This document shows positions 5,213 to 33,728 of a DNA stretch of 64,000 bases, piece by piece. The translations under genes were made by a program, and so were the position numbers. The stretch comes from Candidatus Omnitrophota bacterium (lineage in GTDB: Bacteria; Omnitrophota; Gorgyraeia; B26-G9; JBDRCZ01). The stretch's first letter is position 1. The number at the start of each line of letters is the position of its first letter. The notes beneath the pieces were generated by a model that searched no databases, was not told where the DNA came from, and saw only the letters and a program-made list of their open reading frames with translations. The DNA is taken from NCBI GenBank assembly GCA_043821285.1, contig JBDRCZ010000109.1, positions 4,302 to 68,301 of the forward strand, read 5' to 3'.

Positions 5213-6355
5213 TTGAACAAGATAAAAGTATTTTATATCATAACGAAATTAGAACTTGGCGGGGCACAGCTTTACACCTTAGATTTAATTAAAACACTGG
5301 ATCGAGATAAATTTCAGCCGGTACTGCTAAGTTCTGACCATGGATTTTTAGTTGAAGAAGTAAAAAGGCAAGCTTTCTGCAAAACCTACTTTTTACCTGC
5401 CTTAAAAAGAGAGATTAATCCCCTATTAGATTTGCTTGCTTTTGTAAAGATAATTAAGTGTATACGAGATGAAAAACCGGATATTGTACATACCCATAGC
5501 TCAAAAGCCGGCATATTAGGCCGCTGGGCAGCAAAAATAGATGGGGTTAAGAAAATTATCCATACTATTCATGGGTTCCCTTTTTATGAGTATCAGAATA
5601 AGATTATTAAATATTTTTATATCTTTCTTGAAAAAATAACCGCGAAAATAACTACACAACTTATTACCGTTTCAAAAAGCGATATCCAAAAGGGACTAAA
5701 ATATAAAATTGGGACGTTAGAAAAATATGTGACAATACAGTGTATAATGCCAACGGAGCGGTTTAAAATAAGCCAAGATGAAATAGATAAAGTAAAAGCA
5801 GATTTCCGCTTAAAAAACGGGGTAAAAATTGTTGGCATGGTTGCTTGTTTTAAGCCGCAAAAGGCGCCGCTTGATTTTATTGAAATGTGCTGTTCTGTAT
5901 TAAAAAGGCTGCCAGATACCAAATTTATTTTAGTCGGCGACGGGATCTTACGAAAAAAGATTGAGCAGAGGATAAGACAATATAATTTAGAAGGTAAGAT
6001 TATACTTACCGGCTGGCGGAGAGATGTTCCAGAGATTTTATCGGTTATGGATGTATTTGTGCTTACGAGTAAATGGGAGGGGTTACCGGTTGCAATAATG
6101 GAAGCGATGTATATGGGTGTGCCGGTAGTCGCAAATTGCGTTGATGGGGTTCAGGAACTAGTACAGGATAAAGTTACCGGATATCTTGTTTCACCTGGGG
6201 ATATCGAAGGAATGGCAAATCGGGTAGTTGAGCTGCTGGCTAATGACAAGAAACGGATAACTTTGGCAGAGCAGGCAAGACATGCGGTTGATAACAAATA
6301 TAATATTACAACAATGGTAAATGATACCCAGCAGGTTTATGAATCATTGATTTAA
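5213..6355 (+). CDS. Glycosyltransferase family 4 (GT-B)
   Basis: TTG start, aggaa about 18 nt upstream. N-term KVFYIITKLELGGAQ is typical of GT4. C-terminal E-x7-E region (EGLPVAIMEAMYMGVPVV). Confidence 0.8.
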   Translation: MNKIKVFYIITKLELGGAQLYTLDLIKTLDRDKFQPVLLSSDHGFLVEEVKRQAFCKTYFLPALKREINPLLDLLAFVKIIKCIRDEKPDIVHTHSSKAGILGRWAAKIDGVKKIIHTIHGFPFYEYQNKIIKYFYIFLEKITAKITTQLITVSKSDIQKGLKYKIGTLEKYVTIQCIMPTERFKISQDEIDKVKADFRLKNGVKIVGMVACFKPQKAPLDFIEMCCSVLKRLPDTKFILVGDGILRKKIEQRIRQYNLEGKIILTGWRRDVPEILSVMDVFVLTSKWEGLPVAIMEAMYMGVPVVANCVDGVQELVQDKVTGYLVSPGDIEGMANRVVELLANDKKRITLAEQARHAVDNKYNITTMVNDTQQVYESLI

Positions 6356-6495
6356 AGTACAAAATTGACAAAACCTGATTTTTTCATTGCAGAATATATA
6401 GCTGTTCAATAGTTGCTGTTTTGGTATCAAAATAAAATCTGTTATAGATAGAGAGTTGAAAAATACAAAGTATTTTTCGATTTGGATAATTAAAG

Positions 6496-7503
6496 ATGCA
6501 ACAATACATATTTTATACAGTTTTAGTTTCGATGATGCTGGCAATTATGCTTATGCCAATTTTTAAAAAATTTGCCTACAAGAAAAATCTGCTTAGCCGT
6601 ACAAACGCGATGGACAGGCGTAAGGTGCCTTATATTGGGGGTATTGTTTTTTACATTGTTTTTTGCATGGTTCTTATGATTATGCTTAATGTATCAAAGA
6701 TGCCTTTTGTGATTAAAAAATTGCAGGGGATAATTATTTCTTCAGCAATAATTGTTATTTTAGGACTATATGATGACTGGCGGGAGCTTAAGATGTTACC
6801 TAAATTTTTCGGCCAGCTTATTGCAGCAATGAGTCTGGCAATATTTGGCATCCGTACACATATAATCTTAATTGGGGATTTAGTAAATTATATTATAACG
6901 ATTATTTGGATTGTCGGGATTGTAAATGCGTTTAACTTTTTAGATATCAGAGATGGCTTATGTGCGGGTATTGCTCTAATTGCCACTACTTCATTTTTTA
7001 TAATTGCCCTTATCACTAAAAACAATTATATTGCCATGCAGTGCGCGGTATTAGCCGGAATTTTAATCGTATTTTTGAAATACAATTGTCCGCCGGCAAA
7101 GTTATTTATGGGGGATACCGGCAGCATGTTTTTAGGCTTTATCTTGGCCGCGATTGCCTTAGAAATAAGCTATGCCCCGGAAGGCCACAGCCTGCGTCTT
7201 TTATCTCCGATTATGGTAATGACGGTGCCTATTTTTGATATTATTTTTGTGACATTTATGCGGTTGAAAAATAAAAGGTCTGTTTTTAAAAAGAGTAACG
7301 ATCATTTTATTTTTTTACTGGAGGGGACAAAATTCAGCCGGCAGAATAGTATTATTTTTATGTTTAAATTAGGAATACTTGCTGCACTTGCGGCAATCAT
7401 TATAAATCTGACAGTAAATATTACCGGCAGTATCGTTTTTGTCATACTTTTAGTAACATTTATTGTCTCCGGAGCCAAAATTAGTTACTTAAAAAATGTT
7501 TAA
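6496..7503 (+). CDS. wecA: Polyprenyl-phosphate HexNAc-1-phosphate transferase (WecA/MraY family, glycosyltransferase family 4)
   Basis: Multi-TM protein. Motifs DDWRELK, NAFNFLDIRDGL and PAKLFMGDTGSMFLGF match WecA/MraY signatures. Confidence 0.8.
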   Translation: MQQYIFYTVLVSMMLAIMLMPIFKKFAYKKNLLSRTNAMDRRKVPYIGGIVFYIVFCMVLMIMLNVSKMPFVIKKLQGIIISSAIIVILGLYDDWRELKMLPKFFGQLIAAMSLAIFGIRTHIILIGDLVNYIITIIWIVGIVNAFNFLDIRDGLCAGIALIATTSFFIIALITKNNYIAMQCAVLAGILIVFLKYNCPPAKLFMGDTGSMFLGFILAAIALEISYAPEGHSLRLLSPIMVMTVPIFDIIFVTFMRLKNKRSVFKKSNDHFIFLLEGTKFSRQNSIIFMFKLGILAALAAIIINLTVNITGSIVFVILLVTFIVSGAKISYLKNV

Positions 7504-8326
7504 TATTGCAGATTTTATAAGAAAGATTCCCCCCAATTGGGAATTACTAATAAATTTAGCTTTAAAAAATATAAAGGTGCAGTATCGGCAGCCTTGGCTT
7601 GGGTTTTTGTGGGCATTTTTTGTGCCTTTGTTTATGATAATTATATTTAAGTTTATATTTTCAGTGATTCTGCGTATTCAAATAGCCGAGTATCCATTTT
7701 TCATTTATCTGATGACCGCAGTATTTCCCTGGAAATATTTTCAGGACTCCGTGGTGAGCGGAACCAACAGCATATTGAATAATAAAAACCTGGTAAAAGA
7801 GGCGGCATTCCCCCGTGAGCTTTTACCCATATCTGTAGTTATTGCCAATCTTATTAATTTTATCCCCAGTTTAGTAATAATGTTTTTATTTTTGCATATT
7901 TTTCGACTGGGTATCTCTGGCTGGTTTTTGTTACTGCCGGTTATTGTGTTATTGCATACATTTTTCATCATTGGGTTTGTGTTACTGACTTCTTGTCTTC
8001 AGGTAAAATTCCGCGATTTAAACTATATTGTGGAAGTATTAGTTTTTGCACTTTTTTATTTAACGCCGGTTTTTTATCCGCTAAATTTAGTCGAGCAGTA
8101 CCTAAATCCGGGGCTTTTTAAATTATATATAGCCAATCCGTTAGTCGGGATGCTTAATCTTTACCGGATAGCTTTTCTTCCGGGTTTTTACCGGACATTA
8201 CCAGAGCAAGTACAGATTTTTGATATTATCGTAATTCCTTTGATATGGACAGGCTTTATCTTTGCCACAGGGATTTTTGTTTTTAGAAAGCAAAAATATA
8301 CATTTAATGATTATATAGCTATTTAA
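7496..8326 (+). CDS. wzm: ABC-2 type polysaccharide exporter permease (Wzm-like)
   Basis: Six predicted TM helices. Overlaps the upstream gene by 8 nt. Immediately precedes the Wzt-like ATPase. Confidence 0.75.
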   Translation: MFNIADFIRKIPPNWELLINLALKNIKVQYRQPWLGFLWAFFVPLFMIIIFKFIFSVILRIQIAEYPFFIYLMTAVFPWKYFQDSVVSGTNSILNNKNLVKEAAFPRELLPISVVIANLINFIPSLVIMFLFLHIFRLGISGWFLLLPVIVLLHTFFIIGFVLLTSCLQVKFRDLNYIVEVLVFALFYLTPVFYPLNLVEQYLNPGLFKLYIANPLVGMLNLYRIAFLPGFYRTLPEQVQIFDIIVIPLIWTGFIFATGIFVFRKQKYTFNDYIAI

Positions 8327-8360
8327 TTATTACTGAAAATACCAGCAATAATTTAAAAAA

Positions 8361-8475: not shown

Positions 8476-8503
8476 TATCATTAATGTCGAAGGAAATACT
8501 TTA

Positions 8504-10204
8504 ATGTGTATGCTTGTATTAGAAAATATCAGTAAAAGATTTGTCAAAGCAACGGATAAAGATTGTAAACCAGCGTATTTCTGGGCATTGAAGAATATGA
8601 GTTTTAGTATTGCACAAGGTGAAATTTTTGGTATCATCGGCAGAAATGGTGCAGGCAAGACAACCCTTTTAAACATTATTGCCGGGATTACTTCTCCGAC
8701 AGAAGGACAGATTAAACTGCAGGGTAAGGTTTCGAGTCTATTTAACTTAGGCACGGGTTTTCAGCATGAGTTAAGTGGCGCAGAGAATATTTATTTAAAC
8801 GGTGCAATTTTAGGCATGCGCCAGACTGAAATCCAGAATAAATACCGCAATATTGTTGAATTTTCCGAGCTGGATGAATTTATTAATATGCCTTTAGGAA
8901 ATTATTCGCAGGGCATGCAGCTCAGGCTTGGGTTTAGCATTGCCATACATTTAGATTTTGATTTATTAATTATCGATGAAGTGCTTACGGTTGGTGACGG
9001 GGCATTTCAGGATAAATGTTTTACAAAACTTACAGAATTTAGACAACAGGGTAAGACAATGATTATTACCACCCAGTCTTTAGGCCTCATTGAGAGGCTA
9101 TCAACCAAGGTGCTATTACTGGAGCAGGGTAGGAATTATGGATATGGCAGTCCGGAAAAGGTAATTGCCGCCTATAAAAAATTATTAAATGAGCACAGAA
9201 AATTATCTGTTTTTCAAAATAATGACATTGTAAAAAAAACAATGTGGTGGTCATTGGATAAAGAAGAGTGGGGGAGAAGATCCGGCACTAAAGAAGTAAT
9301 TATCAAAAAAGTAAAAATGCTAAATCGATGGGGAAAGGGTGTTCAAGAGATAAAACCCAATGATTTTTTAAAAATAAAGGTATGCTTTTCAGTTAAGCAG
9401 ATGATAAAAGAGCCGCATTTTGGCATTGCCGTATTCCGGGAAGATGGGGTTTATTGTTATGGTCCTAATACCATGTTTGATAGTCTTATGTTTGAGAGAT
9501 TAACTATGGGAGAAGGATGGTTTAGTCTTGAGTATAAACGATTTATTCTAATGCCGGGCAAGTATTATTTTTCTGTAATTATCTGGGACAAAAAAGAGGT
9601 ATTAGCCTATGATTGTTTTAAAGGATATTTTAAATTAGAAGTAATTGGGGAAAATAGGGATAATCAACTGCTGAGTCTTAAATCCAGGTTTCATGATCAG
9701 AAGTTTTGGTGGATAAAAAATAACCATTTAAGTAACGGTTTTTTAAATCACGCCGTGCTGAGTGATAAATGGCAAAAAGAATATAATTCTCAACAGGCCG
9801 AAATAAAAAGCGTCCGATTTTTAGATCGTCAGAATAATTTTAAAACAGAATTTTGTACCGAAGAAAAGATGCAGATAAAGATAGATTTTTTTATTCCCGA
9901 CATGGTTAAAAATAATACCCTGTGCTTATGGATAGGAATCTTCCGTGATGACGGTATTTTTTGCCATTCGCGCTATAAAAAGGTAAAACCAACAGATAAA
10001 TCATTCACTTTAATCTATCCGAAATTATTATTGTTACCCGGGGAATACCGGGTTTCTATTGTGATATATGATAAAAATAAAGATGATTTTTTAATTATCA
10101 ATCACGGCAGATATCCTTTTAGAGTATACTTTACACGCCCGGACCATGGCACAGTTTATTTAACACACCAATGGCGCTATAAATTGCCAGATAGTGTCAC
10201 ATAG
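8504..10204 (+). CDS. wzt: ABC transporter ATP-binding protein Wzt-like with tandem C-terminal carbohydrate-binding-like domains
   Basis: Walker A GRNGAGKTT. Signature YSQGMQLRLGF. Walker B LLIIDEV. C-terminal about 320 aa form two repeated beta-rich modules (…LMPGKYYFSVIIWDK… / …LLPGEYRVSIVIYDK…). Confidence 0.8.
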   Translation: MCMLVLENISKRFVKATDKDCKPAYFWALKNMSFSIAQGEIFGIIGRNGAGKTTLLNIIAGITSPTEGQIKLQGKVSSLFNLGTGFQHELSGAENIYLNGAILGMRQTEIQNKYRNIVEFSELDEFINMPLGNYSQGMQLRLGFSIAIHLDFDLLIIDEVLTVGDGAFQDKCFTKLTEFRQQGKTMIITTQSLGLIERLSTKVLLLEQGRNYGYGSPEKVIAAYKKLLNEHRKLSVFQNNDIVKKTMWWSLDKEEWGRRSGTKEVIIKKVKMLNRWGKGVQEIKPNDFLKIKVCFSVKQMIKEPHFGIAVFREDGVYCYGPNTMFDSLMFERLTMGEGWFSLEYKRFILMPGKYYFSVIIWDKKEVLAYDCFKGYFKLEVIGENRDNQLLSLKSRFHDQKFWWIKNNHLSNGFLNHAVLSDKWQKEYNSQQAEIKSVRFLDRQNNFKTEFCTEEKMQIKIDFFIPDMVKNNTLCLWIGIFRDDGIFCHSRYKKVKPTDKSFTLIYPKLLLLPGEYRVSIVIYDKNKDDFLIINHGRYPFRVYFTRPDHGTVYLTHQWRYKLPDSVT

Positions 10205-10335: not shown

Positions 10336-11988
10336 ATGCGGAGAGAGGGAATGAAGCTTCCTATTGTTAGTATAATCGTAGTCAATTTCAACGGCAAAAA
10401 GTATCTAAGAGACTGCTTTACATCCTTAGCTAATCTAAATTATCCCAAAGATAAAATAGAGATAATTATGGTGGATAATGGTTCTACAGACGGTTCGTTA
10501 GAGTATACGGAGAAACATTTTTCAGAAGTAAAGATTATTAAAAATGACATTAACAATTACTGCCGGGCGAATAATTTAGGGATAAAACAAGCTAAAGGGG
10601 AATTTATTCTTTTACAAAATAATGATGTTGTAGCAGAAAAGGATGTGTTGAGAGAATTAATGTTAGTCATTAGCCAAGATAATAAGATCGGTGCAGTTAC
10701 CGGTAAGATCTTATTCCCTGACGGAAAGATACAGTGTGTGGGGCATTATATGATGCCAAATTATTACTGGGCAGACCGTGGATTTAGAGAGGATGACCAT
10801 GGGCAGTATAACGAGGCAGAGGAAATCGATAGTCTTTCGCATTGTTTTGCTTTATATAGAAAAGAGTGTTTGAACAATGTAGGCGAGTTGGATGAGTCTT
10901 TTAATATGTATCTGGAAGACATTGATTTGTCGATACGGCAAAAACAAGAGCAATGGAAAATATTTTATGTTCCAAAAGCAGTTGTTTATCATAAATTTCA
11001 TGGTTCAGTAGATGAAAAAACAGTTGACTTTTACTGTGAAAGAAACAGACTGCTGTTAGTGGCTAAACATTACCCAGAAAAATTACCCCAGACATTATTG
11101 GGACAAGGATATTTTACAGTTTTAAGAGATGCTCGAAAAAGATTTATTGAGATTTTACCGGAAATATTTAATAAGATAAGTATTCACCATGGTCCGGCAA
11201 TGGTTATTCGTTTACTTCCGGATATTTTTAAAAATATGCAGGAGATAATGAATTATGAAAAAGATTATTTGGTAAAGCATATAGATGTATTAAAAAGCTA
11301 TATTAGCAGCAAAGAAGCAGAAATTATCCGTTTAAACGAAAGGATTGAGCAGGAGGTTCGTTTCATTGCCAAAAGGGATAAGATTATTAAAGACAGAGAG
11401 GAAGAAATTATCCGTTTAAACGAAAGGATTGAACAGGAAATAAGTTATGTTATCGAAAGGGATAAAATTATTGAAAATAAGGAACATATAATTGCAGATT
11501 TAAATGAGCGGATTAAATATGGTCATAGTGTTATTTTAGAAAGAGATGATACGATAAAGGGAAAGGAAGAGAAAATTATCTGCTTAGAAGAAGAGATTAA
11601 ACGGAAATTAAATATTATTACTGAGAGAAATAAGGTTATCAGTGAGAAACATAGAGAGATTATGCGGTTAAATTCAGAAATTCAAGAGATGCTTAATTCA
11701 GAAACATTTCGTTTTTTAATCTGTCCTGCCTGGAAGATGTTAGATAGAATCAAATTATTATTCAAAAAATGCAAGCAATGCATAGGTTCTTTTATATTTT
11801 TTATAAAAAAGATTATAAAAAATATCAGGCATGTTTTTACAAATTTAGCAGAAAAAGCTTCACAATCGATTAAATATATAATAAAAGCAATATTAGGTAA
11901 TATTATCTTTGTTTTTATAATTATATTATTTTTTATATTTATTGCGGTTCCGTTAAGGTTGAAAAAAATATTTAGGGTAAATGTATGA
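10336..11988 (+). CDS. GT2 glycosyltransferase fused to a long C-terminal coiled-coil and a hydrophobic tail
   Basis: GT-A N-terminus (IVSIIVVNFNG…DNGSTDGS…, DxD-like EDID). Residues about 310-460 are heptad-rich repeats (EIIRLNERIEQE appears twice). Ends …NSETFRFLICPAW… plus a TM/amphipathic tail. Confidence 0.75.
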   Translation: MRREGMKLPIVSIIVVNFNGKKYLRDCFTSLANLNYPKDKIEIIMVDNGSTDGSLEYTEKHFSEVKIIKNDINNYCRANNLGIKQAKGEFILLQNNDVVAEKDVLRELMLVISQDNKIGAVTGKILFPDGKIQCVGHYMMPNYYWADRGFREDDHGQYNEAEEIDSLSHCFALYRKECLNNVGELDESFNMYLEDIDLSIRQKQEQWKIFYVPKAVVYHKFHGSVDEKTVDFYCERNRLLLVAKHYPEKLPQTLLGQGYFTVLRDARKRFIEILPEIFNKISIHHGPAMVIRLLPDIFKNMQEIMNYEKDYLVKHIDVLKSYISSKEAEIIRLNERIEQEVRFIAKRDKIIKDREEEIIRLNERIEQEISYVIERDKIIENKEHIIADLNERIKYGHSVILERDDTIKGKEEKIICLEEEIKRKLNIITERNKVISEKHREIMRLNSEIQEMLNSETFRFLICPAWKMLDRIKLLFKKCKQCIGSFIFFIKKIIKNIRHVFTNLAEKASQSIKYIIKAILGNIIFVFIIILFFIFIAVPLRLKKIFRVNV

Positions 11989-13166
11989 ATATTCTTTTTC
12001 TTTCCCGCGATTATCCCCCTGGACATGTTGGCGGGGTAGGGACATATGTTTATGAAATGTCACGCCTTTTAGCAAAAATAGGACACAAGGTGTTTGTGAT
12101 AACAGAATCTCAGGATGGACCGCTTGATTATATAGAACAGGGCGTACATATTTTTAGAGTTCCATATACTAAAAATAAGTTATTGAATTATGCCCGTCAG
12201 AAACTACCTGGTTTTATAGAAAGAGTGGAATATAGCTATATCGTATCGAAAAAAATACAAGAAGTTGTTTTAAAGCATAAAATTGACATTGTCGAAAGTT
12301 GTGAAGCACGCGCCGAAGGATTTTTATATTATCTTTTTAAAAGAAAACCGCCTTTGGTAATAAAACTTCATACCCCTGAAGGTATAGTATCTAAGTTGAA
12401 CCGTGATCCACAAACAAAGGACCGCCAATTGCTTGAAAAGTTAGAGGAATGGTGGATTTGCCGTGCGCATAGAGTAATCGGACTTAGTCAAGCAATTGCT
12501 AGTCTAACAAGACAGCATTACCAGATCAGACTTAAGAACCTGCCTATTGTATCAAATCCTCTTGATATCGAATATTTTAGACCCAGACAATGTTTAAATA
12601 ATCACAAGACAGTTTTGTATATAGGCCGGCTGGAGTTTCGTAAGGGTGTTCATGTGCTCATTCGTGCAATCCCCGGTATTTTAAAAGAAGTTCCTCAGGT
12701 AAAATTTATTTTTGTAGGTGATGACTGTGGAATGAAAGCCTATCTTAGAGATACCGTAGAGCGTTTCAATGTTAGCGATTCCGTAGAATTTCTTGACCAA
12801 ATGCCAAGAGATAAATTAATTGGTTATTATCAGCAAAGTAGTGTTTGTGTTGTCCCGTCTCTTTGGGAAAATCAGCCGTATGTAATCTTAGAGGCAATGG
12901 CTTGCGGAAAACCGGTTATTGCCAGTGATACCGGCGGAATCTCTGAAATTATCAAAGACAAAGTCAACGGGCTTTTAGTTGCCCCGGGGAGTGTAATAGA
13001 TTTAACAGAAATAATAATAAAAGTATTAGTTGATAGACAATTACAAGAAAAATTAGGTGATAATGCCAGAAAATTTATTGAAAATACATACTCCCCAATA
13101 ACAGTTGTTAAAAGCAGCTTAAAAATATATGAAAGATTTGTAAAGAATGTTTCCATTTTGCCCTAA
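11985..13166 (+). CDS. Glycosyltransferase family 4
   Basis: ATGA overlap. MNILFLSRDYPPGHVGGVGTY and EGFGLVILEAMACGKPVIAS-like motifs. Confidence 0.8.
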   Translation: MNILFLSRDYPPGHVGGVGTYVYEMSRLLAKIGHKVFVITESQDGPLDYIEQGVHIFRVPYTKNKLLNYARQKLPGFIERVEYSYIVSKKIQEVVLKHKIDIVESCEARAEGFLYYLFKRKPPLVIKLHTPEGIVSKLNRDPQTKDRQLLEKLEEWWICRAHRVIGLSQAIASLTRQHYQIRLKNLPIVSNPLDIEYFRPRQCLNNHKTVLYIGRLEFRKGVHVLIRAIPGILKEVPQVKFIFVGDDCGMKAYLRDTVERFNVSDSVEFLDQMPRDKLIGYYQQSSVCVVPSLWENQPYVILEAMACGKPVIASDTGGISEIIKDKVNGLLVAPGSVIDLTEIIIKVLVDRQLQEKLGDNARKFIENTYSPITVVKSSLKIYERFVKNVSILP

Positions 13167-17418: not shown

Positions 17419-17500
17419 ACGTGAGAATGCTTTTACTTTCTCGTTTTTTGTAAATGTACATACCGATTAAGCAAATTTGAGTATAAAAAAGGAGACGATT

Positions 17501-19140: not shown

Positions 19141-19153
19141 TTAATTAAAACTT

Positions 19154-25332: not shown

Positions 25333-25339
25333 CTTCAAA

Positions 25340-26866
25340 ATGAAAATATTACTGGCAAATATCCCCTGGATTAATAAGGGCAGGTGGGGAGTGCGGGCGG
25401 GTTCGCGCTGGCCGCATATAAAAGACCATACGGAGAGTGATTATTTACCCTTTCCTTTTTACTTAGCCTATGCTGCTGCTTTGCTTAAAAAACATGGTTT
25501 TGAAGTTGTTTTAATCGATGCGATTGCCATGCAAGTGGGATATAAAGAGTTTTTGCAAAAGGTAGAGTCTATTTTTCCTGATTTGATGGTCGCAGAAATT
25601 TCCACTGTATCCCTTGAACATGACCTTGATTTTTTAAAACAGATTGGTAAAGATATTCCACTGGCTTTATGCGGTCCGGATGTAAATATCCGTAATCCTG
25701 AATTTATTAAATCTTACCACTTTGTTAAATATGTATTAATCGGTGAATATGAGAATATATTACTTGAGCTTGCGCAGTGCCTATCCCAAAATAAAGATTT
25801 AAGCAGCATAAAGGGTTTAATATATCGGAACGGTAGTAATTCGATAAGACTTAATACAGGTACACAGATAATTAATGACCTTGATGATTTACCATGGCCT
25901 TTACGGGAAAACATGTCCATGTTGAAATACCGGGACCTGCCTGGTGGCTTGCCGGAACCCTCGGTACAGATGTGGGCCAGCCGCGGCTGTCCGTTTCAGT
26001 GTAAGTTTTGCCTCTGGCCGCAGGTGATGTATTTTAATAATCATTACCGCAGCCGCAGTATACACGATGTTGTTGATGAGATGGAGTATCTGGTTAAAAA
26101 AAAGGGATTTAAATCCATTTATTTTGATGATGATACATGGAATGTAGGTAAAAACAGAGTCTTGCAATTTTGCCGAGAGTTAAAGACACGTAATCTTAAT
26201 ACACCCTGGGCCGTAATGGCACGACCAGATTTAATGGATGAAGAAATTCTTGATAATTTAAAGGATGCCGGGCTTTACTCACTTAAATATGGGGTGGAAT
26301 CAGCCACGCAGGAACTTTTAGATTCTGCTAATAAGGCAATGGATCTGAAAAAGGCGCACAAAATGGTACGTTATACAAAAAAAATAGGGATTAAAATGCA
26401 TCTTACGTTTACTTTTGGTCTTGACGGTGAAACTAAAGAGACAATTCAGAAAACAATTAAATATGCTATAGAACTTGACCCGCACTCTGTACAGTTTTCC
26501 ATAGCCACACCATTTCCGGGCACGCGATTTTATCATGAAGCAAAAACTAAAGGTCAAATTATGACGCATAAACTAACTTATTATGACGGAAACTACAGCA
26601 GTGTGATTAAGACCGAACGATTAACTGCACAAAAGCTTACTGCGGCGAAAAAAATAGCCTATAAGTTATGGCAAGAGTATTGCTATAAGCGCAACAGTTA
26701 TAAAAAAGAAGTATTAAAACCATTTCTGATAAGAAAATTTATTTCTGTAGTAAACAACCGGGGATTATTAAAGGCGGTTATTAAAACTTTTGATTTTTTG
26801 CGAGTAAAAACAGATCTTTTGCTGAAAAAAGATATCAACCACAGAGGGACTAGTGCTCACTTATAA
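25340..26866 (+). CDS. B12-binding (class B) radical SAM enzyme
   Basis: MKILLANIPW… B12-domain-like N-terminus. ASRGCPFQCKFC radical SAM motif. RBS agga upstream of 25340 (the ORF track starts at 25289). Confidence 0.75.
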   Translation: MKILLANIPWINKGRWGVRAGSRWPHIKDHTESDYLPFPFYLAYAAALLKKHGFEVVLIDAIAMQVGYKEFLQKVESIFPDLMVAEISTVSLEHDLDFLKQIGKDIPLALCGPDVNIRNPEFIKSYHFVKYVLIGEYENILLELAQCLSQNKDLSSIKGLIYRNGSNSIRLNTGTQIINDLDDLPWPLRENMSMLKYRDLPGGLPEPSVQMWASRGCPFQCKFCLWPQVMYFNNHYRSRSIHDVVDEMEYLVKKKGFKSIYFDDDTWNVGKNRVLQFCRELKTRNLNTPWAVMARPDLMDEEILDNLKDAGLYSLKYGVESATQELLDSANKAMDLKKAHKMVRYTKKIGIKMHLTFTFGLDGETKETIQKTIKYAIELDPHSVQFSIATPFPGTRFYHEAKTKGQIMTHKLTYYDGNYSSVIKTERLTAQKLTAAKKIAYKLWQEYCYKRNSYKKEVLKPFLIRKFISVVNNRGLLKAVIKTFDFLRVKTDLLLKKDINHRGTSAHL

Positions 26867-27289
26867 GGTGAGCGACGGCCTTTGGCCGTTCATTGCCATA
26901 AATACTTATTTTCCCACCAAGACGCAAAGAGCGCCAAGTTGTTAAGCTGCGGGGGGTAAGATTGTTTCTTATGATATTATGTATTTCTTTGCGTGCTTTG
27001 CGACTTTGCGGGATTATTATTTTATTGTTTTTTGTTAGCATATTCAAACTTAGCCAGTCGGGATAACTGACTGGTAAAAACTATAAAATAAAGTGACATC
27101 TATATGTTATGATTGTAGTTACAACATCGTAAATGTTTTTTAAGATGTTCCACCGTAGGTGGAACTGAGGAACACAGAGTGGATATAAATTCAATGTAAA
27201 ACTATTGAAAGATGGGATAGAAAGGTTTGTGTTGTAAGATTTCTCTGTGAAGCTCAGTGCTCTCTGTGGTTTTAAAAAACAGTTAGACC

Positions 27290-29269
27290 ATGACTAAAGA
27301 AACGATAAAAAGTATCCACAAAAACCGTAAGTCGTTTAAGCTGTTAAAAGACTATATAAAACAAAAAGGCTTGAGCCGAGCCTTTTTTAAAACATTGAAC
27401 TATCTTAAATGGCAAAACGTAATGCATAATTATTCAACAATAATTGGCATATTTGACGGAAGGCATTCATATAAAGGACCAGACTTTGTTCAGATCGATT
27501 TAACCAATAACTGTAATAATGATTGTATTGGCTGCTGGTGTAATTCTCCGCTTTTAGAAGAAAAAAGATTGCCGGTAAGTATTAAGCGTCAGACATTAAA
27601 ATATGAATATGTTTTAGAACTGCTGAATATACTACATGAAATGGGCACAAGAGAGGTTTATTTTGCCGGCGGGGGAGAACCGTTTATGTATCCACAACTT
27701 TTAGATATACTTGCCTATGCCAAAAAAAAGAATTTCATCTGCTACCTAAACACAAATTTTACTTTAGTTAATGAAGAGATTATCGACAGGTTAATTGCAC
27801 TTGAGATTGATCACTTAACCGTGAGTATCTGGGCCGCAACCCCTGAAACTTATGTATGTACTCACCCGAATAAGAACAAAGATACATTTTTTAAACTTAC
27901 TAATAATCTGAAACTTCTGAATTCCCGCAAAAAAGATAAACCAATAATTAAAATATACAATGTTATTTCTAATTTGAATTTTCAGGAAGTTGACAAGATG
28001 GTAGATTTTGCTATAGAGACACAATCCGAAACAATGGAGTTTACGGTTGTTGATACTATACCTGATAAAACCGATAAGCTTCTATTAGCAGAAAAAGAGA
28101 ATAAAATCATTTATGAAGAATGTATGAATATTAAAAAAAAGATTGATGAGAATAAACTGGGAAATTTAAAGATTTTAGGATTTGAGCAGTTTTTAAGGCG
28201 CATAAGTTGTGAAGGAGCAGGTTGTGCACAGTATGATAAAGGGATAATTGATCATGTCCCCTGTTATATCGGCTGGACATTTGCGCGGATACTAGCAGAT
28301 GGCAATGTTAATTCTTGTCTGAAATCACACCGTTTTCCCGTAGGGAATATTTATGTTAATAACTTTGCTGATATTTGGAACTCTTCATTTCAGCAAAAAT
28401 TTCGCCGGCACACACTGGCTTTTAAAAAAGATGACCCATTTTTTAAACTTATTGGCAACGACCCTAATGCACGCGTTGGCTGTTATAAGAGCTGTGATGA
28501 CCTGATGCGTAATATTAACACCCATAACAGGATTACTTCTTTAACCCTGCTTGAGTGGCACTTTTTACAGGGCATTGCCATGATTATTAAGATTATAAGA
28601 AAAATCAAACAAGAAAGGTTTAAAATTTGTCTTATCAATAAAAGATATATTCTGGGTGACAAAGAAGGCATTAATATGCGTCAATTTGATGATAATTTAA
28701 AGATATATTTAAAGAATGAAGAAATCACGGAGAGTATTGGATTAAATTCATCATTTAAAGTTTTAAATACCTGGCATGATTCATCTAAGTCGAAATGGCA
28801 GGCTAAAAAGTCTGTACTCAATAAAGTAAGATTAATTAAGCAATGGCTCTATTTACCGATAACTCAGTTTTGGGACATAACCTTGGAAGATAAAAAAACA
28901 TTACTTATAAATATAGAGATGGACATTGAAGAGGAAATTGAGATAGAAGCGCAGAAAGTTACGCTTTTATTATCGGGAAAATACAAAAAATGGTTTGTTG
29001 GCCGGGAAAATGGGTTGTTTTCAGATTTTGACAATTGGGAGAAATTGAATTTAGGCGGACACAAGCAGCAAACAATAGGTGTTTGTGCGTTTAATGGACT
29101 GCCGGATATTGAATTTAGATTTTTTAGCGATGAATTTTGGCCGGAAGTGCAAAATTCTGATTACAAAAATGCCTGCCGTATAGTCTCAGCGGTCAGAGAA
29201 GGCAAATATAGACTACTTAAAGGCCGGCACAAGTTATTCTGCGGCGAGATTAAGATTATTAAAACATAA
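27290..29269 (+). CDS. Radical SAM/SPASM enzyme with about 250-aa C-terminal extension of unknown function
   Basis: CNNDCIGCWC (CX3CX2C). GGGEPF. Downstream Cys clusters CAQYD…CYIGW…SCL and CYKSCDD. Confidence 0.7.
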   Translation: MTKETIKSIHKNRKSFKLLKDYIKQKGLSRAFFKTLNYLKWQNVMHNYSTIIGIFDGRHSYKGPDFVQIDLTNNCNNDCIGCWCNSPLLEEKRLPVSIKRQTLKYEYVLELLNILHEMGTREVYFAGGGEPFMYPQLLDILAYAKKKNFICYLNTNFTLVNEEIIDRLIALEIDHLTVSIWAATPETYVCTHPNKNKDTFFKLTNNLKLLNSRKKDKPIIKIYNVISNLNFQEVDKMVDFAIETQSETMEFTVVDTIPDKTDKLLLAEKENKIIYEECMNIKKKIDENKLGNLKILGFEQFLRRISCEGAGCAQYDKGIIDHVPCYIGWTFARILADGNVNSCLKSHRFPVGNIYVNNFADIWNSSFQQKFRRHTLAFKKDDPFFKLIGNDPNARVGCYKSCDDLMRNINTHNRITSLTLLEWHFLQGIAMIIKIIRKIKQERFKICLINKRYILGDKEGINMRQFDDNLKIYLKNEEITESIGLNSSFKVLNTWHDSSKSKWQAKKSVLNKVRLIKQWLYLPITQFWDITLEDKKTLLINIEMDIEEEIEIEAQKVTLLLSGKYKKWFVGRENGLFSDFDNWEKLNLGGHKQQTIGVCAFNGLPDIEFRFFSDEFWPEVQNSDYKNACRIVSAVREGKYRLLKGRHKLFCGEIKIIKT

Positions 29270-29319
29270 AACTTTTTACCACGAAGCGCACGAAGGCCAC
29301 GAAGAAAAAAGAAGGTATT

Positions 29320-29693
29320 GTGAAATTTGATGAGTTGTCAAATAGGATAATTGGTTTAACGATTGAGGTTCATAAGGGACTGGGGCCTGGATTGTTGGAA
29401 AACACGTATAAGCAATGCTTAGCTTATGAATTAAGGCAGGCAGGTATTAATTTTCAAATGGAGAGTGAATTGTACCTGTACAATACAAGAAGATACGTAT
29501 CCCTTGTGGATACCGTGTAGATTTTATAGTAGAAGACAATCTAATCATAGAATTAAAAAGCGTTGATGAAATACATCCAATACATGAAGCACAGTTAATA
29601 ACCTATATGAAATTTGCGAAGGTAAAGATTGGGTTATTGATAAATTTTAACGAAAGACTTCTTAAGAAGGGCATAAAAAGATTTGTTCTATAA
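29320..29693 (+). pseudogene. GxxExxY-family (PD-(D/E)XK-like) gene with internal frameshift
   Basis: N-terminal half MKFDELSNRIIGLTIEVHKGLGPGLLENTYKQCLAYEL… in one frame. C-terminal half …PVQYKKIRIPCGYRVDFIVEDNLIIELKSVDEIHPIHEAQLITYMKFAKVKIGLLINFN… is in frame +2, joining near 29464-29472. Confidence 0.6.
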
Positions 29694-29743
29694 AAACTTA
29701 CTTCGTGCCCTTCGTGGTTCAAAATTTAGAAAAAATCTAAAAT

Positions 29744-31390
29744 ATGAAACGACATGAGTTTGATATTGTGATTGTTGCTTCTCCTCCATGGGCAATATCT
29801 TTGCCGCCTTTAGGCGTGGCCTATTTAAGTACTAATTTAGGTAAAAGGGGTATGAATTGCTTTGTGTATGATTTAAATTTAGAACTTTATGAAATTGCAG
29901 CTATTGCTAAAAGAAGACATTGGGATTTAGAAATAATTAATAATTTTAGCCCGGAAGACATAGGAGATAATTTATTTGAAGATTTTAAGGTTAATTTATC
30001 GGATTTATTAGCCATATCCAGAAAAACCGGGGTGCTTGCCTTTTCGGTTAACAGTCATATTAGTTGTGCCTTTTCCGCTAAGGTTGCCAGGTGTATGAAA
30101 AATGTTTATCCGGATAAAATCATAATTTTTGGCGGGCCGGGCTGCTATCATAGCTGGGATAGAAGGTTTGTAAATAAAGGAGCAGTAGATTTTTTTATTA
30201 TTGGCGAGGGGGAACATGCATTGTTTAATTTATTAGAGGCAATATTTCAAAACCGGGGTGTGAAAAATATTGCTGGTGTTATTGACAATAATCAGGAAGA
30301 TAACTATGGATTTACCCCGGCAGAAACCATAAGAAATTTAGATGAACTAACACATCCTGATTTTAGGGAATTTGATCTTAACCGTTATCAAAAATATTTA
30401 TCCGCATATCCGAAGGATCGGGCACTGCCAATACTTATAAGCCGGGGCTGTGTAAATAGATGTAGTTTTTGTATTGACTATTATATGCAGGGCAATTTTC
30501 GCAGCCGCAGGCCGGAAGATGTAGTAAAGGAAATCATTTTTCATATGACACATAATCATACCCAGCGGTTTGAATTCAATGATTTATTATGTAATGGTAA
30601 TTTAAACAGGTTAGAAGCGATGTGTGATTTAATCATAAAAAACGGACTTAAAATTAGTTGGAGCAGTTATGCGACAATCCGCAGGGATATGAATAAGGAA
30701 CTCTTTGTAAAGATGAGGAAAGCAGGATGTGTTTCATTATGTTATGGTATGGAAAGTGCCTCAGACAAAATCCTTGGTTTAATGAACAAAAAATATACTT
30801 CCCATGATGCACAAACGTTACTTACCGCAACAAAAGAGGCAGGTATTTCGCCACACATAAACATAATTGTCGGATTTCCGCAAGAAGAAGATGTAGATTA
30901 TATAAAAACATATGATTTTTTAATTGAAAATAAAAAGTATATTGATAACGTAGCAAATGTATCATCTTTTGTACTAATGCCGGCATCAGAGGTGGGAGTA
31001 TATCCCAAAAGGTATGGTATTGAAAGGTTAAATGGGAATTTAGGTTGGGTTGATAATAACGGCCTGGATTTAGAAAAACGTATCTTTCGGCTGAATAAAA
31101 TATCACAGTTAATAACAGAGCTTAATATTTCAACTAAGATAATAAATATCCCAGAGTATGCAAAAGTGCCAGAAGTAGATATCATTATACCCTGCAAAAA
31201 TGAAGATATGATGACTTTACTACCAAGCTCTTTATACGATCGGCGGGAGCGCGGAAATTTATTTTTGGAAAAGGTCAGACGGAATAAAATCTATCGTTTT
31301 TTAATTATTTTATTTTTGCTGAGTTACACAGTATTTATTCAGGTCTATTTTTATCTACTGGGGATAATCAGAAAGATTGTGAAAGAATAG
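29744..31390 (+). CDS. B12-binding (class B) radical SAM enzyme with C-terminal TM tail
   Basis: FDIVIVASPPW… B12-domain-like N-terminus. SRGCVNRCSFC. Confidence 0.75.
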   Translation: MKRHEFDIVIVASPPWAISLPPLGVAYLSTNLGKRGMNCFVYDLNLELYEIAAIAKRRHWDLEIINNFSPEDIGDNLFEDFKVNLSDLLAISRKTGVLAFSVNSHISCAFSAKVARCMKNVYPDKIIIFGGPGCYHSWDRRFVNKGAVDFFIIGEGEHALFNLLEAIFQNRGVKNIAGVIDNNQEDNYGFTPAETIRNLDELTHPDFREFDLNRYQKYLSAYPKDRALPILISRGCVNRCSFCIDYYMQGNFRSRRPEDVVKEIIFHMTHNHTQRFEFNDLLCNGNLNRLEAMCDLIIKNGLKISWSSYATIRRDMNKELFVKMRKAGCVSLCYGMESASDKILGLMNKKYTSHDAQTLLTATKEAGISPHINIIVGFPQEEDVDYIKTYDFLIENKKYIDNVANVSSFVLMPASEVGVYPKRYGIERLNGNLGWVDNNGLDLEKRIFRLNKISQLITELNISTKIINIPEYAKVPEVDIIIPCKNEDMMTLLPSSLYDRRERGNLFLEKVRRNKIYRFLIILFLLSYTVFIQVYFYLLGIIRKIVKE

Positions 31391-31498
31391 TATTATATTG
31401 ATAATAAAAAAACGTGAAAAGAATAAACCAGATCACTCAGATAGTTAGTCTGATAAAAAAAACCACGGATTAACACGGATTGGACAGGGGAGAGCAAA

Positions 31499-32647
31499 AT
31501 GCATATTTTGATGGTACATCCGCATGATATTACCTCGCCGCATGAACCATGGACCACACGTATCACGAATATTGCCCAGGAATTTATCAAACAGGGGCAT
31601 CAGGTCAAACTAATATGTTTTGCCTATGAAGATACACATCTCTCATCCCGGCAGCAGGTTAATGGATATGAAGTAAGCATGTTATCAAGGAAGATGGGGG
31701 TAATAAATTTATTTAAAAATATTGTGTTTATATATAAACAAGCAGCCGGAGCCGATATTATACATTTTCAAAAATGTTTCTGGTGGGCGGCATTGCCCTG
31801 TTTAATTGCCGGGTGGTTATTAAATAAGCCGGTACATTATGACTGGGATGATTGGGAGCTGAAGATTTATTATTATGGCAGAAAACAATCAAAGATTTTA
31901 GGTGCATTTTTAGCAATTTGGGAAAGGCTGATTTTGGAAACAGCGGATACAATATCTTGTTCCAGCAAAAGACTTAGCGATGAATGTAGAAGAATCGGCA
32001 TAGCAGATAAAAGATTATTTGAAGCGCATGTGGGCGCAGATATTGAGCTGTTTAATCCGCACATTTCAGGATTAAGAGTACGGGAAAAATATAATATAAG
32101 TTCTCCTTTGGTGTTATATTTAGGCCAGTTGCATGGTGGACAATATGTAGAACTTTTTATTAAAGCGGCAAAATTAGTTACCATGCTTGAACATAAGGTT
32201 ATGTTTATGATTATCGGAGAGGGGTATCGCAGGAGAGAATTAGAACTGCTTGCTGAAAGATTAGGTATTAACAATCAGATTATTTTTACTGGATATATTC
32301 AGCATAAGGTTATTCCTGAGCATATCGCCGCAAGTGACATTTGCGTTGCCTGTTTTGAGGATAATGCGATTACCCAGTGCAAAAGCCCGTTAAAAATAGC
32401 CGAATACTTAGCAATGGGAAAACCCATAGGTGCCAGTTGTGTAGGCGAGGTAAGACGTATGGTTGGAGGGGTGGGGATTTTGGTTCCACCGGGTGATGCT
32501 TGGGCTCTCTCTGAGGGCATATTGAGAGTTTTACACGATGTTAGCCTAAGAGAACGAATGAGTCTTTTATCACGTGAGCGTGCAGAATTAGAATATAATT
32601 GGAAGGTAACCGCTAATAATCTATTATGCGCGTATAAAAATCAATAA
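31499..32647 (+). CDS. Glycosyltransferase family 4
   Basis: MHILMVHPHDI… GT-B C-terminal half with an E…E motif region. Confidence 0.75.
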   Translation: MHILMVHPHDITSPHEPWTTRITNIAQEFIKQGHQVKLICFAYEDTHLSSRQQVNGYEVSMLSRKMGVINLFKNIVFIYKQAAGADIIHFQKCFWWAALPCLIAGWLLNKPVHYDWDDWELKIYYYGRKQSKILGAFLAIWERLILETADTISCSSKRLSDECRRIGIADKRLFEAHVGADIELFNPHISGLRVREKYNISSPLVLYLGQLHGGQYVELFIKAAKLVTMLEHKVMFMIIGEGYRRRELELLAERLGINNQIIFTGYIQHKVIPEHIAASDICVACFEDNAITQCKSPLKIAEYLAMGKPIGASCVGEVRRMVGGVGILVPPGDAWALSEGILRVLHDVSLRERMSLLSRERAELEYNWKVTANNLLCAYKNQ

Positions 32648-32648
32648 A

Positions 32649-33728
32649 ATGAAAATAATTTTTATAACCCGAGAAGGATATCAGATGCCCGCGGCAAGGG
32701 TGCGCTGTTATAATTTTGCCATAGAGTTGAAAAAATATGGGGTTAAAACAGATGTTTTATCATATTATGACCATATTGAAACTAAAGAAGAATATAAATT
32801 TACTTTTTTAGATAAGGTAAAATTAAATTTAACGGTTTTTAACAGATTATCTAAGGAGGAAAATAGCGTTTTTTTCCTGCAGCGGTTTAATTATCATAGT
32901 TTTGGGCCGTATCTGGCAAAATTTATTAATAAAAACAAACTGATTTTTGATTTAGACGATTGGGAAATTCGGGAAAACCCGCGATATATCCTAAATATTT
33001 GGCCGACGTCTAAAGCAGAATTTTTGACTAAGACAATTGCCAGGCGGGCAAATTGCTGTATTGCGGCCAGCCATTTCCTTTTCGATTATTTGAAGCAGTA
33101 TAACAAAAATGTCTATTATCTACCAACCGGTGTTGATACAACTTTATTTTGCCTTAATGGCGAGGCGCAAAATAATGATGTTGTATTTTCGTGGATTGGC
33201 ACAATACACCGGCCGGATAATGTAGAAAATATTAAATTTATTATTGATTGTTTTAACAAACTAAGCGATAAATATAAGAATATAAGGCTGGAAATAACCG
33301 GAGATGGGGGATATTATCATCAGGTAAAATCAGCAGTAAAAAATGCCGGCAGTAATAGAATTGTGCTAAATAAATGGATAGACCCGAATAGTATGCCGGC
33401 ATATTTAGAACAGATAGACGTAGGTCTTTTGCCCTTAGTTCAGAATACAAAATTTAATCTTGCCAAAAGCCCGGTAAAATTATTTGAATACATGGCAATG
33501 GCAAAACCGGTGATTGCAAGTTATATTGGTGAGGCCGCACAGATTATAACAGATAGACGGACTGGGTTTTTAGCTAAAAATAAAGAAGAATTTATTGAGT
33601 GGATGGAGTTTTTGATAACTAATCCGGAGATAAGAAAAAATATAGGACAAGAAGCAAGAAAAGCGGTAATGAGATATTCTCTAGGCACTTTAATTGCAGA
33701 ACTTTCTCAAATAATACAAAAGATATAA
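32649..33728 (+). CDS. Glycosyltransferase (GT-B, group 1-like)
   Basis: MKIIFITREGYQMPAARVRCYNF… C-terminal nucleotide-sugar binding half (KSPVKLFEYMAMAKPVIAS). Confidence 0.65.
   Translation: MKIIFITREGYQMPAARVRCYNFAIELKKYGVKTDVLSYYDHIETKEEYKFTFLDKVKLNLTVFNRLSKEENSVFFLQRFNYHSFGPYLAKFINKNKLIFDLDDWEIRENPRYILNIWPTSKAEFLTKTIARRANCCIAASHFLFDYLKQYNKNVYYLPTGVDTTLFCLNGEAQNNDVVFSWIGTIHRPDNVENIKFIIDCFNKLSDKYKNIRLEITGDGGYYHQVKSAVKNAGSNRIVLNKWIDPNSMPAYLEQIDVGLLPLVQNTKFNLAKSPVKLFEYMAMAKPVIASYIGEAAQIITDRRTGFLAKNKEEFIEWMEFLITNPEIRKNIGQEARKAVMRYSLGTLIAELSQIIQKI

Follow-up and report, generated by a model that had tools for sequence, protein, structure and literature searches.

The diversity of bacterial surface glycans is usually explained by nucleotide-sugar pathways acting together with glycosyltransferases. 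In the O-polysaccharide route that depends on an ATP-binding cassette (ABC) transporter, as in Escherichia coli O9a and O8 and in Klebsiella and Raoultella, the components are WecA, WbdA-D and Wzm/Wzt, the last with a Wzt_C domain. Radical S-adenosylmethionine (SAM) enzymes enter antibiotic pathways, where BtrN is a Twitch dehydrogenase and GenK a class B C-methylase. Ring contraction of a lipid-linked sugar has been proposed for HpnJ, which takes the hopanoid bacteriohopanetetrol-glucosamine to a cyclitol ether, and for the calditol synthase Cds (PMC13459092). Here we describe an island of 20 open reading frames (ORFs) that brings these themes together in a Candidatus Omnitrophota bacterium, at positions 5213-33728 of a 64,000-nucleotide stretch of contig JBDRCZ010000109.1 (hereafter the window, meaning that whole stretch). 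We consider it probable that this is a surface-glycan locus, dependent on an ABC transporter, with built-in radical SAM tailoring of the lipid-linked glycan before its export.

All 20 ORFs lie on the + strand and are joined by short or overlapping junctions, confirming the co-directional block described in an earlier note on this DNA. The genes for assembly and export of the glycan are as follows, in window coordinates; TM denotes transmembrane helices.

5213-6355, + strand: GT4_a, a GT4 glycosyltransferase and the first gene of the island (Glycos_transf_1 E 1.9e-34, with Glyco_transf_4)
6496-7503, + strand: initiating polyprenyl-phosphate sugar-1-phosphate transferase of the WecA/MraY family, about 10 TM (PF00953 E 6.7e-34)
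7496-8326, + strand: Wzm, ABC-2 permease (PF01061, ABC2_membrane, E 5.6e-12)
8504-10204, + strand: Wzt, ATPase (PF00005, ABC_tran, with PF14524, Wzt_C, E 2.7e-30)
10336-11988, + strand: GT2 glycosyltransferase with a long C-terminal extension and a C-terminal TM at residues 518-536 (PF00535 E 3.1e-26)
11985-13166, + strand: GT4_b glycosyltransferase (PF00534 E 1.1e-43)
15796-17418, + strand: membrane glycosyltransferase of GT-C fold, PMT_2/ArnT-like, about 9 TM (PF13231 E 3.8e-13)
17477-18724, + strand: GT4 glycosyltransferase (Pfam)
18721-19140, + strand: coiled-coil protein of 139 residues (weak coiled-coil-type Pfam matches alone)
19154-20392, + strand: GT4 glycosyltransferase (Pfam)
20515-21957, + strand: SGNH/GDSL hydrolase-fold protein with an N-terminal TM anchor (PF13472 E 2.1e-16)
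21954-23063, + strand: SGNH/GDSL hydrolase-fold protein with an N-terminal TM anchor (PF13472 E 1e-9)
23029-25332, + strand: Wzy_C-family membrane protein with C-terminal TPR repeats, about 14 TM (PF04932 E 3.1e-17, with TPR)
31499-32647, + strand: GT4e glycosyltransferase (Pfam)
32649-33728, + strand: GT4f glycosyltransferase (Pfam)

These Pfam assignments agree with the WecA-like, Wzm/Wzt, GT-C, SGNH and Wzy_C/TPR content previously read from the letters; the "about eight" GT2 and GT4 transferases of that reading are present but number seven, six GT4 and one GT2, beside the single GT-C. Matches to named NCBIfam families fall below their cutoffs for GT4_a (best model the PEP-CTERM-system glycosyltransferase stp2, 185 bits), for the WecA-like protein (TIGR02380, 94 bits) and for Wzm (NF050109 Wzm/RfbD, 57 bits), and Wzt shows similarity to the TagH/Wzt models. 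Wzt ends in two tandem canonical Wzt_C domains (nucleotides ~9275-9655 and ~9764-10123), which match each other with E 4e-15. The features expected of ABC-dependent export are present, namely Wzm and Wzt together, Wzt_C, and a PF00953 initiator with cytoplasmic glycosyltransferases; the locus lacks a terminating or cap-forming enzyme such as a WbdD-like kinase/methyltransferase or a Kdo transferase. A chain terminator is, however, not universal in this pathway. By gene content the locus is a complete ABC-transporter-dependent glycan locus, predicted to export an undecaprenyl-diphosphate-linked polymer.

The likeness to the O9a and O8 systems extends to WecA-type initiation, cytoplasmic elongation by GT4 enzymes, Wzm, a Wzt with C-terminal Wzt_C, a coiled-coil protein among the GT4 genes, and a Wzx flippase that was likewise not detected in the locus. 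There are also differences. By Pfam, the 20 island proteins include no nucleotide-sugar enzyme, methyltransferase or kinase, and none has a Kdo-transferase or WbdD-like terminator domain; nor were nucleotide-sugar enzymes found among the profiled flanking genes of the window; Wzt_C is present in two copies; and five radical SAM genes are interleaved with the rest. In relatives the departure goes further, one to five copies of a domain unrelated to Wzt_C (S2C, below) replacing Wzt_C and occurring on radical SAM enzymes as well. As a separate observation, the GT4 genes at 17477-18724 and 19154-20392 are paralogues (63% identity over 402 residues, BLASTP) that flank the 139-residue coiled-coil protein, an arrangement (17477-20392) that by analogy recalls the coiled-coil chain-length rulers of ABC-dependent O-antigen systems.

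The radical SAM enzymes, each with a PF04055 domain and exactly one CX3CX2C motif, are named S1, S2, B1, B2 and B3, and S2C is the C-terminal domain of S2.

13147-14118, + strand: S1, SPASM-like radical SAM enzyme of 323 residues (PF04055 E 1.3e-16; PF13186 26.8 bits)
14364-15767, + strand: B1, radical SAM enzyme of 467 residues with a B12-binding domain (PF02310 33.3 bits, above cutoff; PF04055 E 9e-23)
25340-26866, + strand: B2, B12-binding-like radical SAM enzyme resembling HpnJ and AprD4 (PF04055 E 1e-18; PF02310 27.8 bits, E 2.5e-6, below cutoff)
27290-28654, + strand: core of S2, residues 1-455 of 659, Twitch-like radical SAM enzyme (PF04055; PF13186 40.1 bits)
28667-29260, + strand: S2C, residues ~460-657 of S2, predicted to fold as a galactose-mutarotase-like beta-supersandwich; not assigned to any family
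29744-31390, + strand: B3, radical SAM enzyme of 548 residues with a B12-binding domain (PF02310 32.7 bits, above cutoff; PF04055 E 2e-15)

Profile searches uphold the earlier assignment of these proteins, with two caveats. Three had been called B12-binding class B enzymes: B1 and B3 exceed the PF02310 cutoff of 32.1 bits, whereas B2 falls short of it, its N-terminus nonetheless aligning to HpnJ and BchE across their B12-like domain. Two had been called SPASM proteins, and both indeed pass the PF13186 cutoff of 21.5 bits; the full seven-cysteine SPASM motif for two auxiliary clusters is absent from each, S1 having five C-terminal cysteines and S2 four. S1 (CNLRCAMC at residue 19) scores 26.9 bits against TIGR04085, whose cutoff is 27. 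S2 (CNNDCIGCWC, whole gene 27290-29269) does not match TIGR04085; the invariant cysteines of its family are 75, 79, 82, 84, 151, 325, 343, 398 and 402, and because only four of these (C325, C343, C398 and C402) are C-terminal it is better called Twitch-like. The motifs of the three B enzymes (CINRCSFC at residue 236 in B1, CPFQCKFC in B2, CVNRCSFC in B3) all stand at residues ~234-236, and B3 carries a C-terminal TM at residues 520-538. For B2, the start at ATG 25340 is more plausible than the TTG at 25289 of the listed ORF.

B2 matches HpnJ (TIGR03471) over nearly its full length (250 bits, E 4e-74), and, as for HpnJ, its substrate would be a sugar that a glycosyltransferase has already joined to a membrane lipid; it is not an HpnJ orthologue, since its score lies far under the HpnJ cutoff of 577.6 bits. 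The setting also differs from that of HpnJ, for Pfam and profile results reveal no shc or hpn (hopanoid) genes in the window, the carrier would presumably be a polyprenyl-diphosphate glycan destined for export, and relatives of B2 carry S2C, which was not found on B2 itself. The match of B2 to BchE (159 bits) is below cutoff. Its nearest solved structure is AprD4 (6fd2, E 2.6e-25), a diol dehydratase whose B12-like domain we take to hold no cobalamin. The S2 family profile shows a marginal match to the sugar-nucleoside decarboxylase BlsE (7vob, E 8e-4), and its four-cysteine, Twitch-like character is a further likeness to the sugar-tailoring enzymes of antibiotic pathways. These similarities are at the level of superfamilies, and the substrates of AprD4, BtrN, BlsE and GenK are small, soluble molecules of secondary metabolism, either pseudo-oligosaccharides or nucleosides; here the setting is Wzm/Wzt export of a primary surface polymer. 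B2 also matches TIGR04295 ("B12_rSAM_oligo", a B12-binding radical SAM family named for oligosaccharide-type clusters) with 87 bits, far from its cutoff of 400, and we found no evidence for a shared neighbourhood, SPASM partners, S2C or Wzt linkage; that family is presumably linked to a conserved glycan-type neighbourhood in rhizobia.

Among the remaining enzymes, B1 and B3 (31% identical to one another) are closest in sequence to methylase-type class B families, TIGR03975 (174 bits for B1, its best NCBIfam model, against a cutoff of 282; 132 bits for B3) and PhpK (120 bits for B3), all below cutoff. The nearest solved structures to S1 are SkfB (E 6e-10) and GDGT-MAS (7tol, E 8e-7), and it scores 56 bits against rSAM_GDGT_ether. 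Judged by family only, B2 would likely rearrange or deoxygenate a sugar or contract its ring, in the manner of HpnJ or AprD4; B1 and B3 likely methylate an unactivated carbon; and S1 and S2 likely carry out an oxidation, epimerisation or decarboxylation, as do BtrN or BlsE. Cobalamin binding and methyl transfer by the class B enzymes are predictions from their domains. The C-methyl branches suggested in the earlier note accordingly shrink to a family-level guess for B1 and B3, B2 being closest to sugar-editing enzymes that do not methylate.

Comparison with other genomes argues that these enzymes belong to the glycan pathway. One genome per GTDB species was scanned with a profile of the S2 core, yielding 80 loci, cited here by number, whose ORFs were called and then classified against the island proteins of the window. 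Most are from Omnitrophota, with a few from metagenome-assembled genomes (MAGs) labelled Aminicenantes, Desulfobacterota, Calescamantes or Woesearchaeota, or found in "Methanosarcinales" bins. S2 has a 100% identical counterpart in NCBI, a protein of a Candidatus Omnitrophota MAG. Homologues of S2 number at least 660 at E <1e-5, and the named ones among the matches listed are all from Omnitrophota/Omnitrophica. A co-directional order recurs, running from an optional WecA-like gene through a flavin amine-oxidase-like gene, Wzm, a long Wzt and B2-, S2- and B3-type enzymes to GT4e, GT4f and GT2; in a second variant, up to about a dozen tandem radical SAM paralogues of S1 size follow Wzm-Wzt (L003, L033, L040, L050, L052). 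Radical SAM density reaches 13 genes per 20 kb. Of these loci, 41 span 15 kb or more. Among them a B12-type radical SAM enzyme occurs in 39, at least three radical SAM genes in 38 and at least five in 24, and all annotated genes are co-directional in 40. Where related loci contain Wzt, a radical SAM gene lies directly 3' of it in 21 of 27 cases. Independent contigs in a protein collection repeat the arrangement, one of them with 15 consecutive radical SAM genes after a 933-residue Wzt-like ATPase. Because the linkage of radical SAM, Wzm/Wzt and GT4 genes recurs in dozens of other species, the clustering exceeds chance. With the core block conserved and fusions present as well, the homologous loci do not place the radical SAM genes in unrelated neighbouring operons, an outcome that the earlier note had named as fatal to its proposal.

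The block B2-S2-B3-GT4e-GT4f, which corresponds to window 25340-33728 and begins with B2, is kept across relatives, with orthologue-like matches to GT4e in 37 loci and to GT4f in 14; on this comparative evidence the module is conserved and characteristic of Omnitrophota as a phylum. Orthologue-like matches to GT4_a adjoin WecA in L083 and L084, and related loci repeatedly contain SGNH genes. They offer no counterpart, however, to the central stretch of the island, made up of GT-C, the pair of GT4 genes, the coiled-coil gene and Wzy_C/TPR, which looks like the variable, strain-specific part. Relatives bring further glycan genes of their own, including GT2, a NodU/CmcH-type carbamoyltransferase, a PMT_2 protein and a phosphodiesterase. 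Two genes recurrent in relatives and absent from the window may be recorded separately. The first, between WecA and Wzm, encodes the flavin amine-oxidase-like protein of about 430 residues (PF01593 with NAD_binding_8; L013 1644-2951, with equivalents in L027, L032, L034, L041, L048 and L083). The second is the carbamoyltransferase (L013 16014-17558; start of L001 and L002), whose recurrence suggests O-carbamoylated sugars in those loci.

Gene fusions strengthen the association. The S2 core is fused to GT4e in L054 and L059 and to another GT4 in L067, and B2 to GT2 in L059. In many Omnitrophota a single protein of about 1400 residues has the order [B12_2][S2C][S2core][S2C], the order also of the two adjacent genes in the window; in all, 31 proteins join the S2 core to B12-type modules. 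Such Rosetta-stone fusions argue that the radical SAM enzymes work together and with glycosyltransferases. Giant polypeptides of 1680-2186 residues, in which three or four class B modules are chained, some with an added S2 core, were also observed (L054 14603-21161; L080 2122-7686; L026 10356-15869; L006 157-5199). A preprint (no identifier) reports that GT1, starch-synthase and radical SAM Pfam domains co-occur in giant Omnitrophota proteins, and describes variable "polysaccharide cassettes". Literature searches combining radical SAM with Omnitrophota, O-antigen, Wzt, SPASM or polysaccharide returned no description of such a system, so that the pairing of radical SAM enzymes with surface-glycan export, conserved across some 80 other species, is apparently undescribed.

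Several features of the enzyme families invite a different interpretation, in which the radical SAM enzymes mature a ribosomally synthesised and post-translationally modified peptide (RiPP) or glycopeptide, which the ABC-2 transporter and glycosyltransferases then serve. The best model for B1 and B3, TIGR03975, is that of a RiPP maturation radical SAM C-methyltransferase; S1 and S2 resemble the SPASM peptide maturases SkfB and PapB; tandem radical SAM paralogues in relatives recall proteusin-type clusters; and a conserved family of ORFs of 47-51 residues lies 3' of the S2 gene in seven related loci. By analogy with multi-radical-SAM RiPP pathways such as those of proteusins and sactipeptides, the present system has many radical SAM/SPASM and class B paralogues per operon and a portable recognition domain. 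All of the supporting family scores are nevertheless under their cutoffs. No plausible precursor ORF was found in any gap of the window, and no convincing one among small ORFs across 82 loci, in accord with the earlier note, which had seen no precursor peptide. The sole conserved small ORF (MAETNxQKFxKHxKxGGxFYAxxRGxKYxxWR...; 40-51 residues in the loci named here, basic, aromatic and directly after an S2-type gene of ~415 residues; L003 11280-11435, L007 11298-11453, L012 5256-5402, L040 11243-11386, L049 7316-7438, L050 11226-11369) resembles the N-terminal ~45 residues of S2, and has no separate counterpart in the window. Pfam and NCBIfam detect no PqqD/RRE, leader peptidase or cyclodehydratase domain in the island proteins. 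The fusions to GT4 and GT2 enzymes, the domain shared with Wzt, and the WecA-like transferases and canonical Wzt_C, which indicate a polyprenol-linked glycan, likewise set the system apart from RiPP pathways: it lacks precursor and RRE, its recognition domain has the fold of carbohydrate enzymes, and its partners are WecA, glycosyltransferases and Wzm/Wzt. A peptide substrate seems to us extremely improbable.

Another proposal is a lipid target, with the polyprenyl carrier or a glycolipid anchor undergoing methylation, cyclisation or tail-to-tail coupling. S1 is weakly similar to GDGT-MAS and rSAM_GDGT_ether, B2 matches the lipid-biosynthesis B12 radical SAM model TIGR04072 (121 bits) along with hopanoid HpnJ and HpnR, and lipid radical SAM enzymes such as Mss and Hbs are encoded in some Omnitrophota MAGs. 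The enzymes that B2 resembles most strongly, however, target the sugar moiety of the substrate (the glucosamine head group for HpnJ, an aminoglycoside for AprD4), fusions join the radical SAM enzymes to glycosyltransferases and to a domain whose fold is typical of carbohydrate-active proteins, and Pfam finds no lipid-synthesis genes in the island. We therefore hold this proposal to be very unlikely, and retain the glycan as the probable substrate.

In relatives, radical SAM enzymes and the exporter have the S2C domain in common. It has no Pfam match at E<=1, and a 60-sequence S2C profile matched no sequence in the PDB; the structure model predicts a galactose-mutarotase-like fold, one found overwhelmingly in carbohydrate-active proteins. 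An iterated hidden Markov model (HMM) search of related loci found 219 copies in 123 proteins. The hosts include 24 Wzt ATPases, with one to five tandem copies from residue ~243, directly after the nucleotide-binding domain; 50 S2-type, 33 B2-type (N- or C-terminal) and 12 B3-type radical SAM enzymes; and four proteins with no other recognised domain, two of them stand-alone ORFs of ~220 residues (L025, L036). In canonical Wzt it is the carbohydrate-binding Wzt_C that sits directly after the nucleotide-binding domain. The Omnitrophota Wzt proteins with S2C have no Pfam Wzt_C, and the Wzt of the Desulfobacterota locus L054, like that of the window, has the canonical domain. The idea that S2C is a divergent Wzt_C was rejected: BLASTP found no similarity, Pfam none at E<=1, and hhalign gave a probability of 0.3%. 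An exhaustive phmmer search of 1.84 billion representatives with the S2C sequence of the window alone matched 401 clusters; among the best 149, 63 pair the domain with a Wzt-type ATPase alone, 7 more combine a Wzt-type ATPase and a radical SAM match, 19 are radical SAM enzymes, and the rest are mostly short fragments. A 5.8-billion-protein index queried with S2C alone or with a 60-sequence alignment returned nothing, probably a word-index limit given that the exhaustive search found these 401 clusters.

That S2C is common to radical SAM enzymes and Wzt in relatives leads us to propose that it couples editing to export, by binding the nascent glycan or docking enzymes at the exporter. It could instead be purely a protein-protein docking domain that assembles the radical SAM enzymes on Wzt through like-with-like contacts. 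That it occurs on the exporter as well as on enzymes of three families, frequently as multiple copies, would suit such a role, as would its very few conserved residues and the existence of the same fold in YidC P1, which is not known to bind sugars. Yet S2C replaces Wzt_C exactly where a known glycan-binding module sits, its fold comes overwhelmingly from carbohydrate-active proteins, and its copies are orthologous by position across species (that of the window being closest to the C-terminal copy of the ~1400-residue fusions) with no sign of pairing within loci, where co-variation between Wzt and radical SAM copies was not seen. Nor can docking to Wzt through S2C work in the window, since S2 has the domain there while Wzt does not. 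A docking role alone thus appears unlikely.

If the locus is, as we propose, one of glycan editing and export, its operation can be outlined as follows, the substrate, the timing of editing and its chemistry being what we infer from the features above. A WecA-like enzyme would start the chain on polyprenyl phosphate at the cytoplasmic face, GT4 and GT2 enzymes would lengthen it, and five cytoplasmic iron-sulphur radical SAM enzymes, one of them membrane-anchored, would edit sugars of the lipid-linked chain by radical chemistry. The Wzt_C domains would recognise the finished chain, which Wzm/Wzt would then export. At the outer face the Wzy_C/TPR protein may ligate it to an acceptor (lipid A-core or proteins), and the GT-C enzyme and two SGNH proteins may add or trim decorations. 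In this scheme, radical editing would take the place of the nucleotide-sugar and terminator genes that the locus lacks. The earlier suggestion of a glycan modified by radical chemistry is thus supported as an interpretation by linkage and fusions; the specific chemistry it put forward is not.

The identity of the acceptor leaves room for protein O-glycosylation, in which the Wzy_C/TPR protein would be a PglL-type oligosaccharyltransferase rather than a ligase to lipid A-core, and the GT-C protein a PMT-like protein glycosyltransferase. The Wzy_C family (PF04932) is a superfamily of O-antigen ligases, polymerases and PglL enzymes that spans WaaL and PglL, the large TPR domain could bind protein acceptors, and the GT-C protein matches PMT_2. 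The match at 23029-25332 cannot, however, separate PglL, WaaL and Wzy, the protein matched no NCBIfam ligase or oligosaccharyltransferase model, and neither it nor the GT-C protein is conserved with the radical SAM module in related loci. We judge protein O-glycosylation unlikely; it concerns the acceptor alone and is compatible with radical tailoring of the chain before export.

Several observations weigh against our proposal. None of the five enzymes reaches the curated NCBIfam cutoff of any characterised radical SAM family, for which reason the chemistry is a guess; the best score of B1 and B3 is to a RiPP C-methyltransferase model, and the best of S1 are to peptide and lipid radical SAM enzymes. 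The S2C model derives from a four-sequence alignment (pLDDT 78), and the same fold is seen in a viral capsid protein and in YidC (its P1 domain), neither a known sugar binder. Only T25, Y110 and P150 are near-invariant in S2C; so few conserved positions speak for a binding role and against mutarotase-type catalysis. Of the 41 loci that reach 15 kb, 25 show Wzm/Wzt, a shortfall due in part to cut flanks. Finally, S2 alone has S2C in the window, B2 lacking it and Wzt using canonical Wzt_C; since S2C is unrelated to Wzt_C, the shared-domain argument comes from relatives and not from the window locus itself.

A gene for a GxxExxY protein (TIGR04256) lies broken between S2 and B3 (29320-29693), in two separate pieces, one encoding 50 residues of the N-terminus (29320-29517, 51.9 bits) and the other 25 residues of the C-terminus (29607-29690). 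A decayed S2C copy in the 424-nucleotide gap between B2 and S2 was considered and rejected, six-frame HMM searches being empty and the gaps sharing no repeats. With B2 and Wzt devoid of S2C, no decayed copy, and this broken gene, the window looks like a hybrid, in which an ordinary Wzt_C-type glycan cluster would have been joined to a reduced Omnitrophota radical SAM module and an extra S1-B1 pair.

A broader and bolder version of the proposal can be drawn from the relatives. Omnitrophota and a few other anaerobes might assemble a plain lipid-linked glycan from common sugars and subject it to "radical editing" residue by residue, with up to about a dozen radical SAM enzymes. S2C would serve as a glycan reader, and on Wzt as an export checkpoint at which chains not yet fully edited would be retained. 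The products could be carbocyclic, deoxy, C-methyl or cross-linked sugars. We offer this as a tentative possibility, more doubtful than not.

The surroundings of the island are distinct in composition and content. Its G+C fraction is 0.30-0.36, against 0.38-0.41 in the housekeeping flanks. Directly upstream (234-4140) lie genes for a GAF histidine kinase, a sigma-54-dependent response regulator and a PocR+GAF sensor; PocR-type domains are tied to cobalamin/propanediol regulation in enterics. The PocR/GAF gene carries at its 3' end (4113-4135) a perfect G+C-rich hairpin, CCTGCCTGCCGGGCAGGCAGG, beyond which comes a non-coding stretch of about 1 kb (4140-5213). Because the upstream regulator is of the sigma-54-dependent type, sigma-54 promoter motifs were sought; they occur at chance-level frequency, and none lies upstream of the island. 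Scans for terminators and sigma-70 promoters were uninformative, apart from one good -35/-10 match at 4869-4897, the best sigma-70-like match, within the non-coding stretch. Downstream the genes are of housekeeping type: pyruvate kinase, rimP, nusA, infB, trpS, scpAB, aromatic amino acid genes, cmk, ispH, rpsA and ribBA. Of the pyruvate kinase domains, only the barrel (PF00224, residues 4-321) is matched by the 339-residue ORF at 33969-34988, no C-terminal domain of that enzyme being detected. A flavin mononucleotide (FMN) riboswitch (51852-52001; Rfam RF00050, 84.9 bits) stands directly 5' of ribBA (52119-53327; DHBP synthase/GTP cyclohydrolase II), and between rpsA and the riboswitch a 484-residue ORF (50070-51524) has no Pfam match at E<=1e-5 and no NCBIfam match at E<=0.01. 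A tRNA gene lies at 58059-58133 (Rfam RF00005, 35.6 bits).

What is new in this system is the multi-radical-SAM editing module and its recognition-type domain; the Wzm/Wzt glycan pathway in which they sit is known. If radical SAM enzymes are indeed wired into the Wzm/Wzt route, through fusions to glycosyltransferases and a domain held in common with the exporter, they would constitute a new layer of glycan biosynthesis and a likely source of unknown sugar chemistry. S2C is defined here as a new domain family that is directly testable for glycan binding; were the bolder, residue-by-residue version true, RiPP logic would have its counterpart among glycans in this system, and S2C would be a new class of substrate-recognition module for Wzt. 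The proposal would also give a function to many unannotated radical SAM genes in an abundant, uncultured and possibly host-dependent phylum, and it provides a handle on the cell envelopes of Omnitrophota, which may play a part in how these bacteria attach to other cells.

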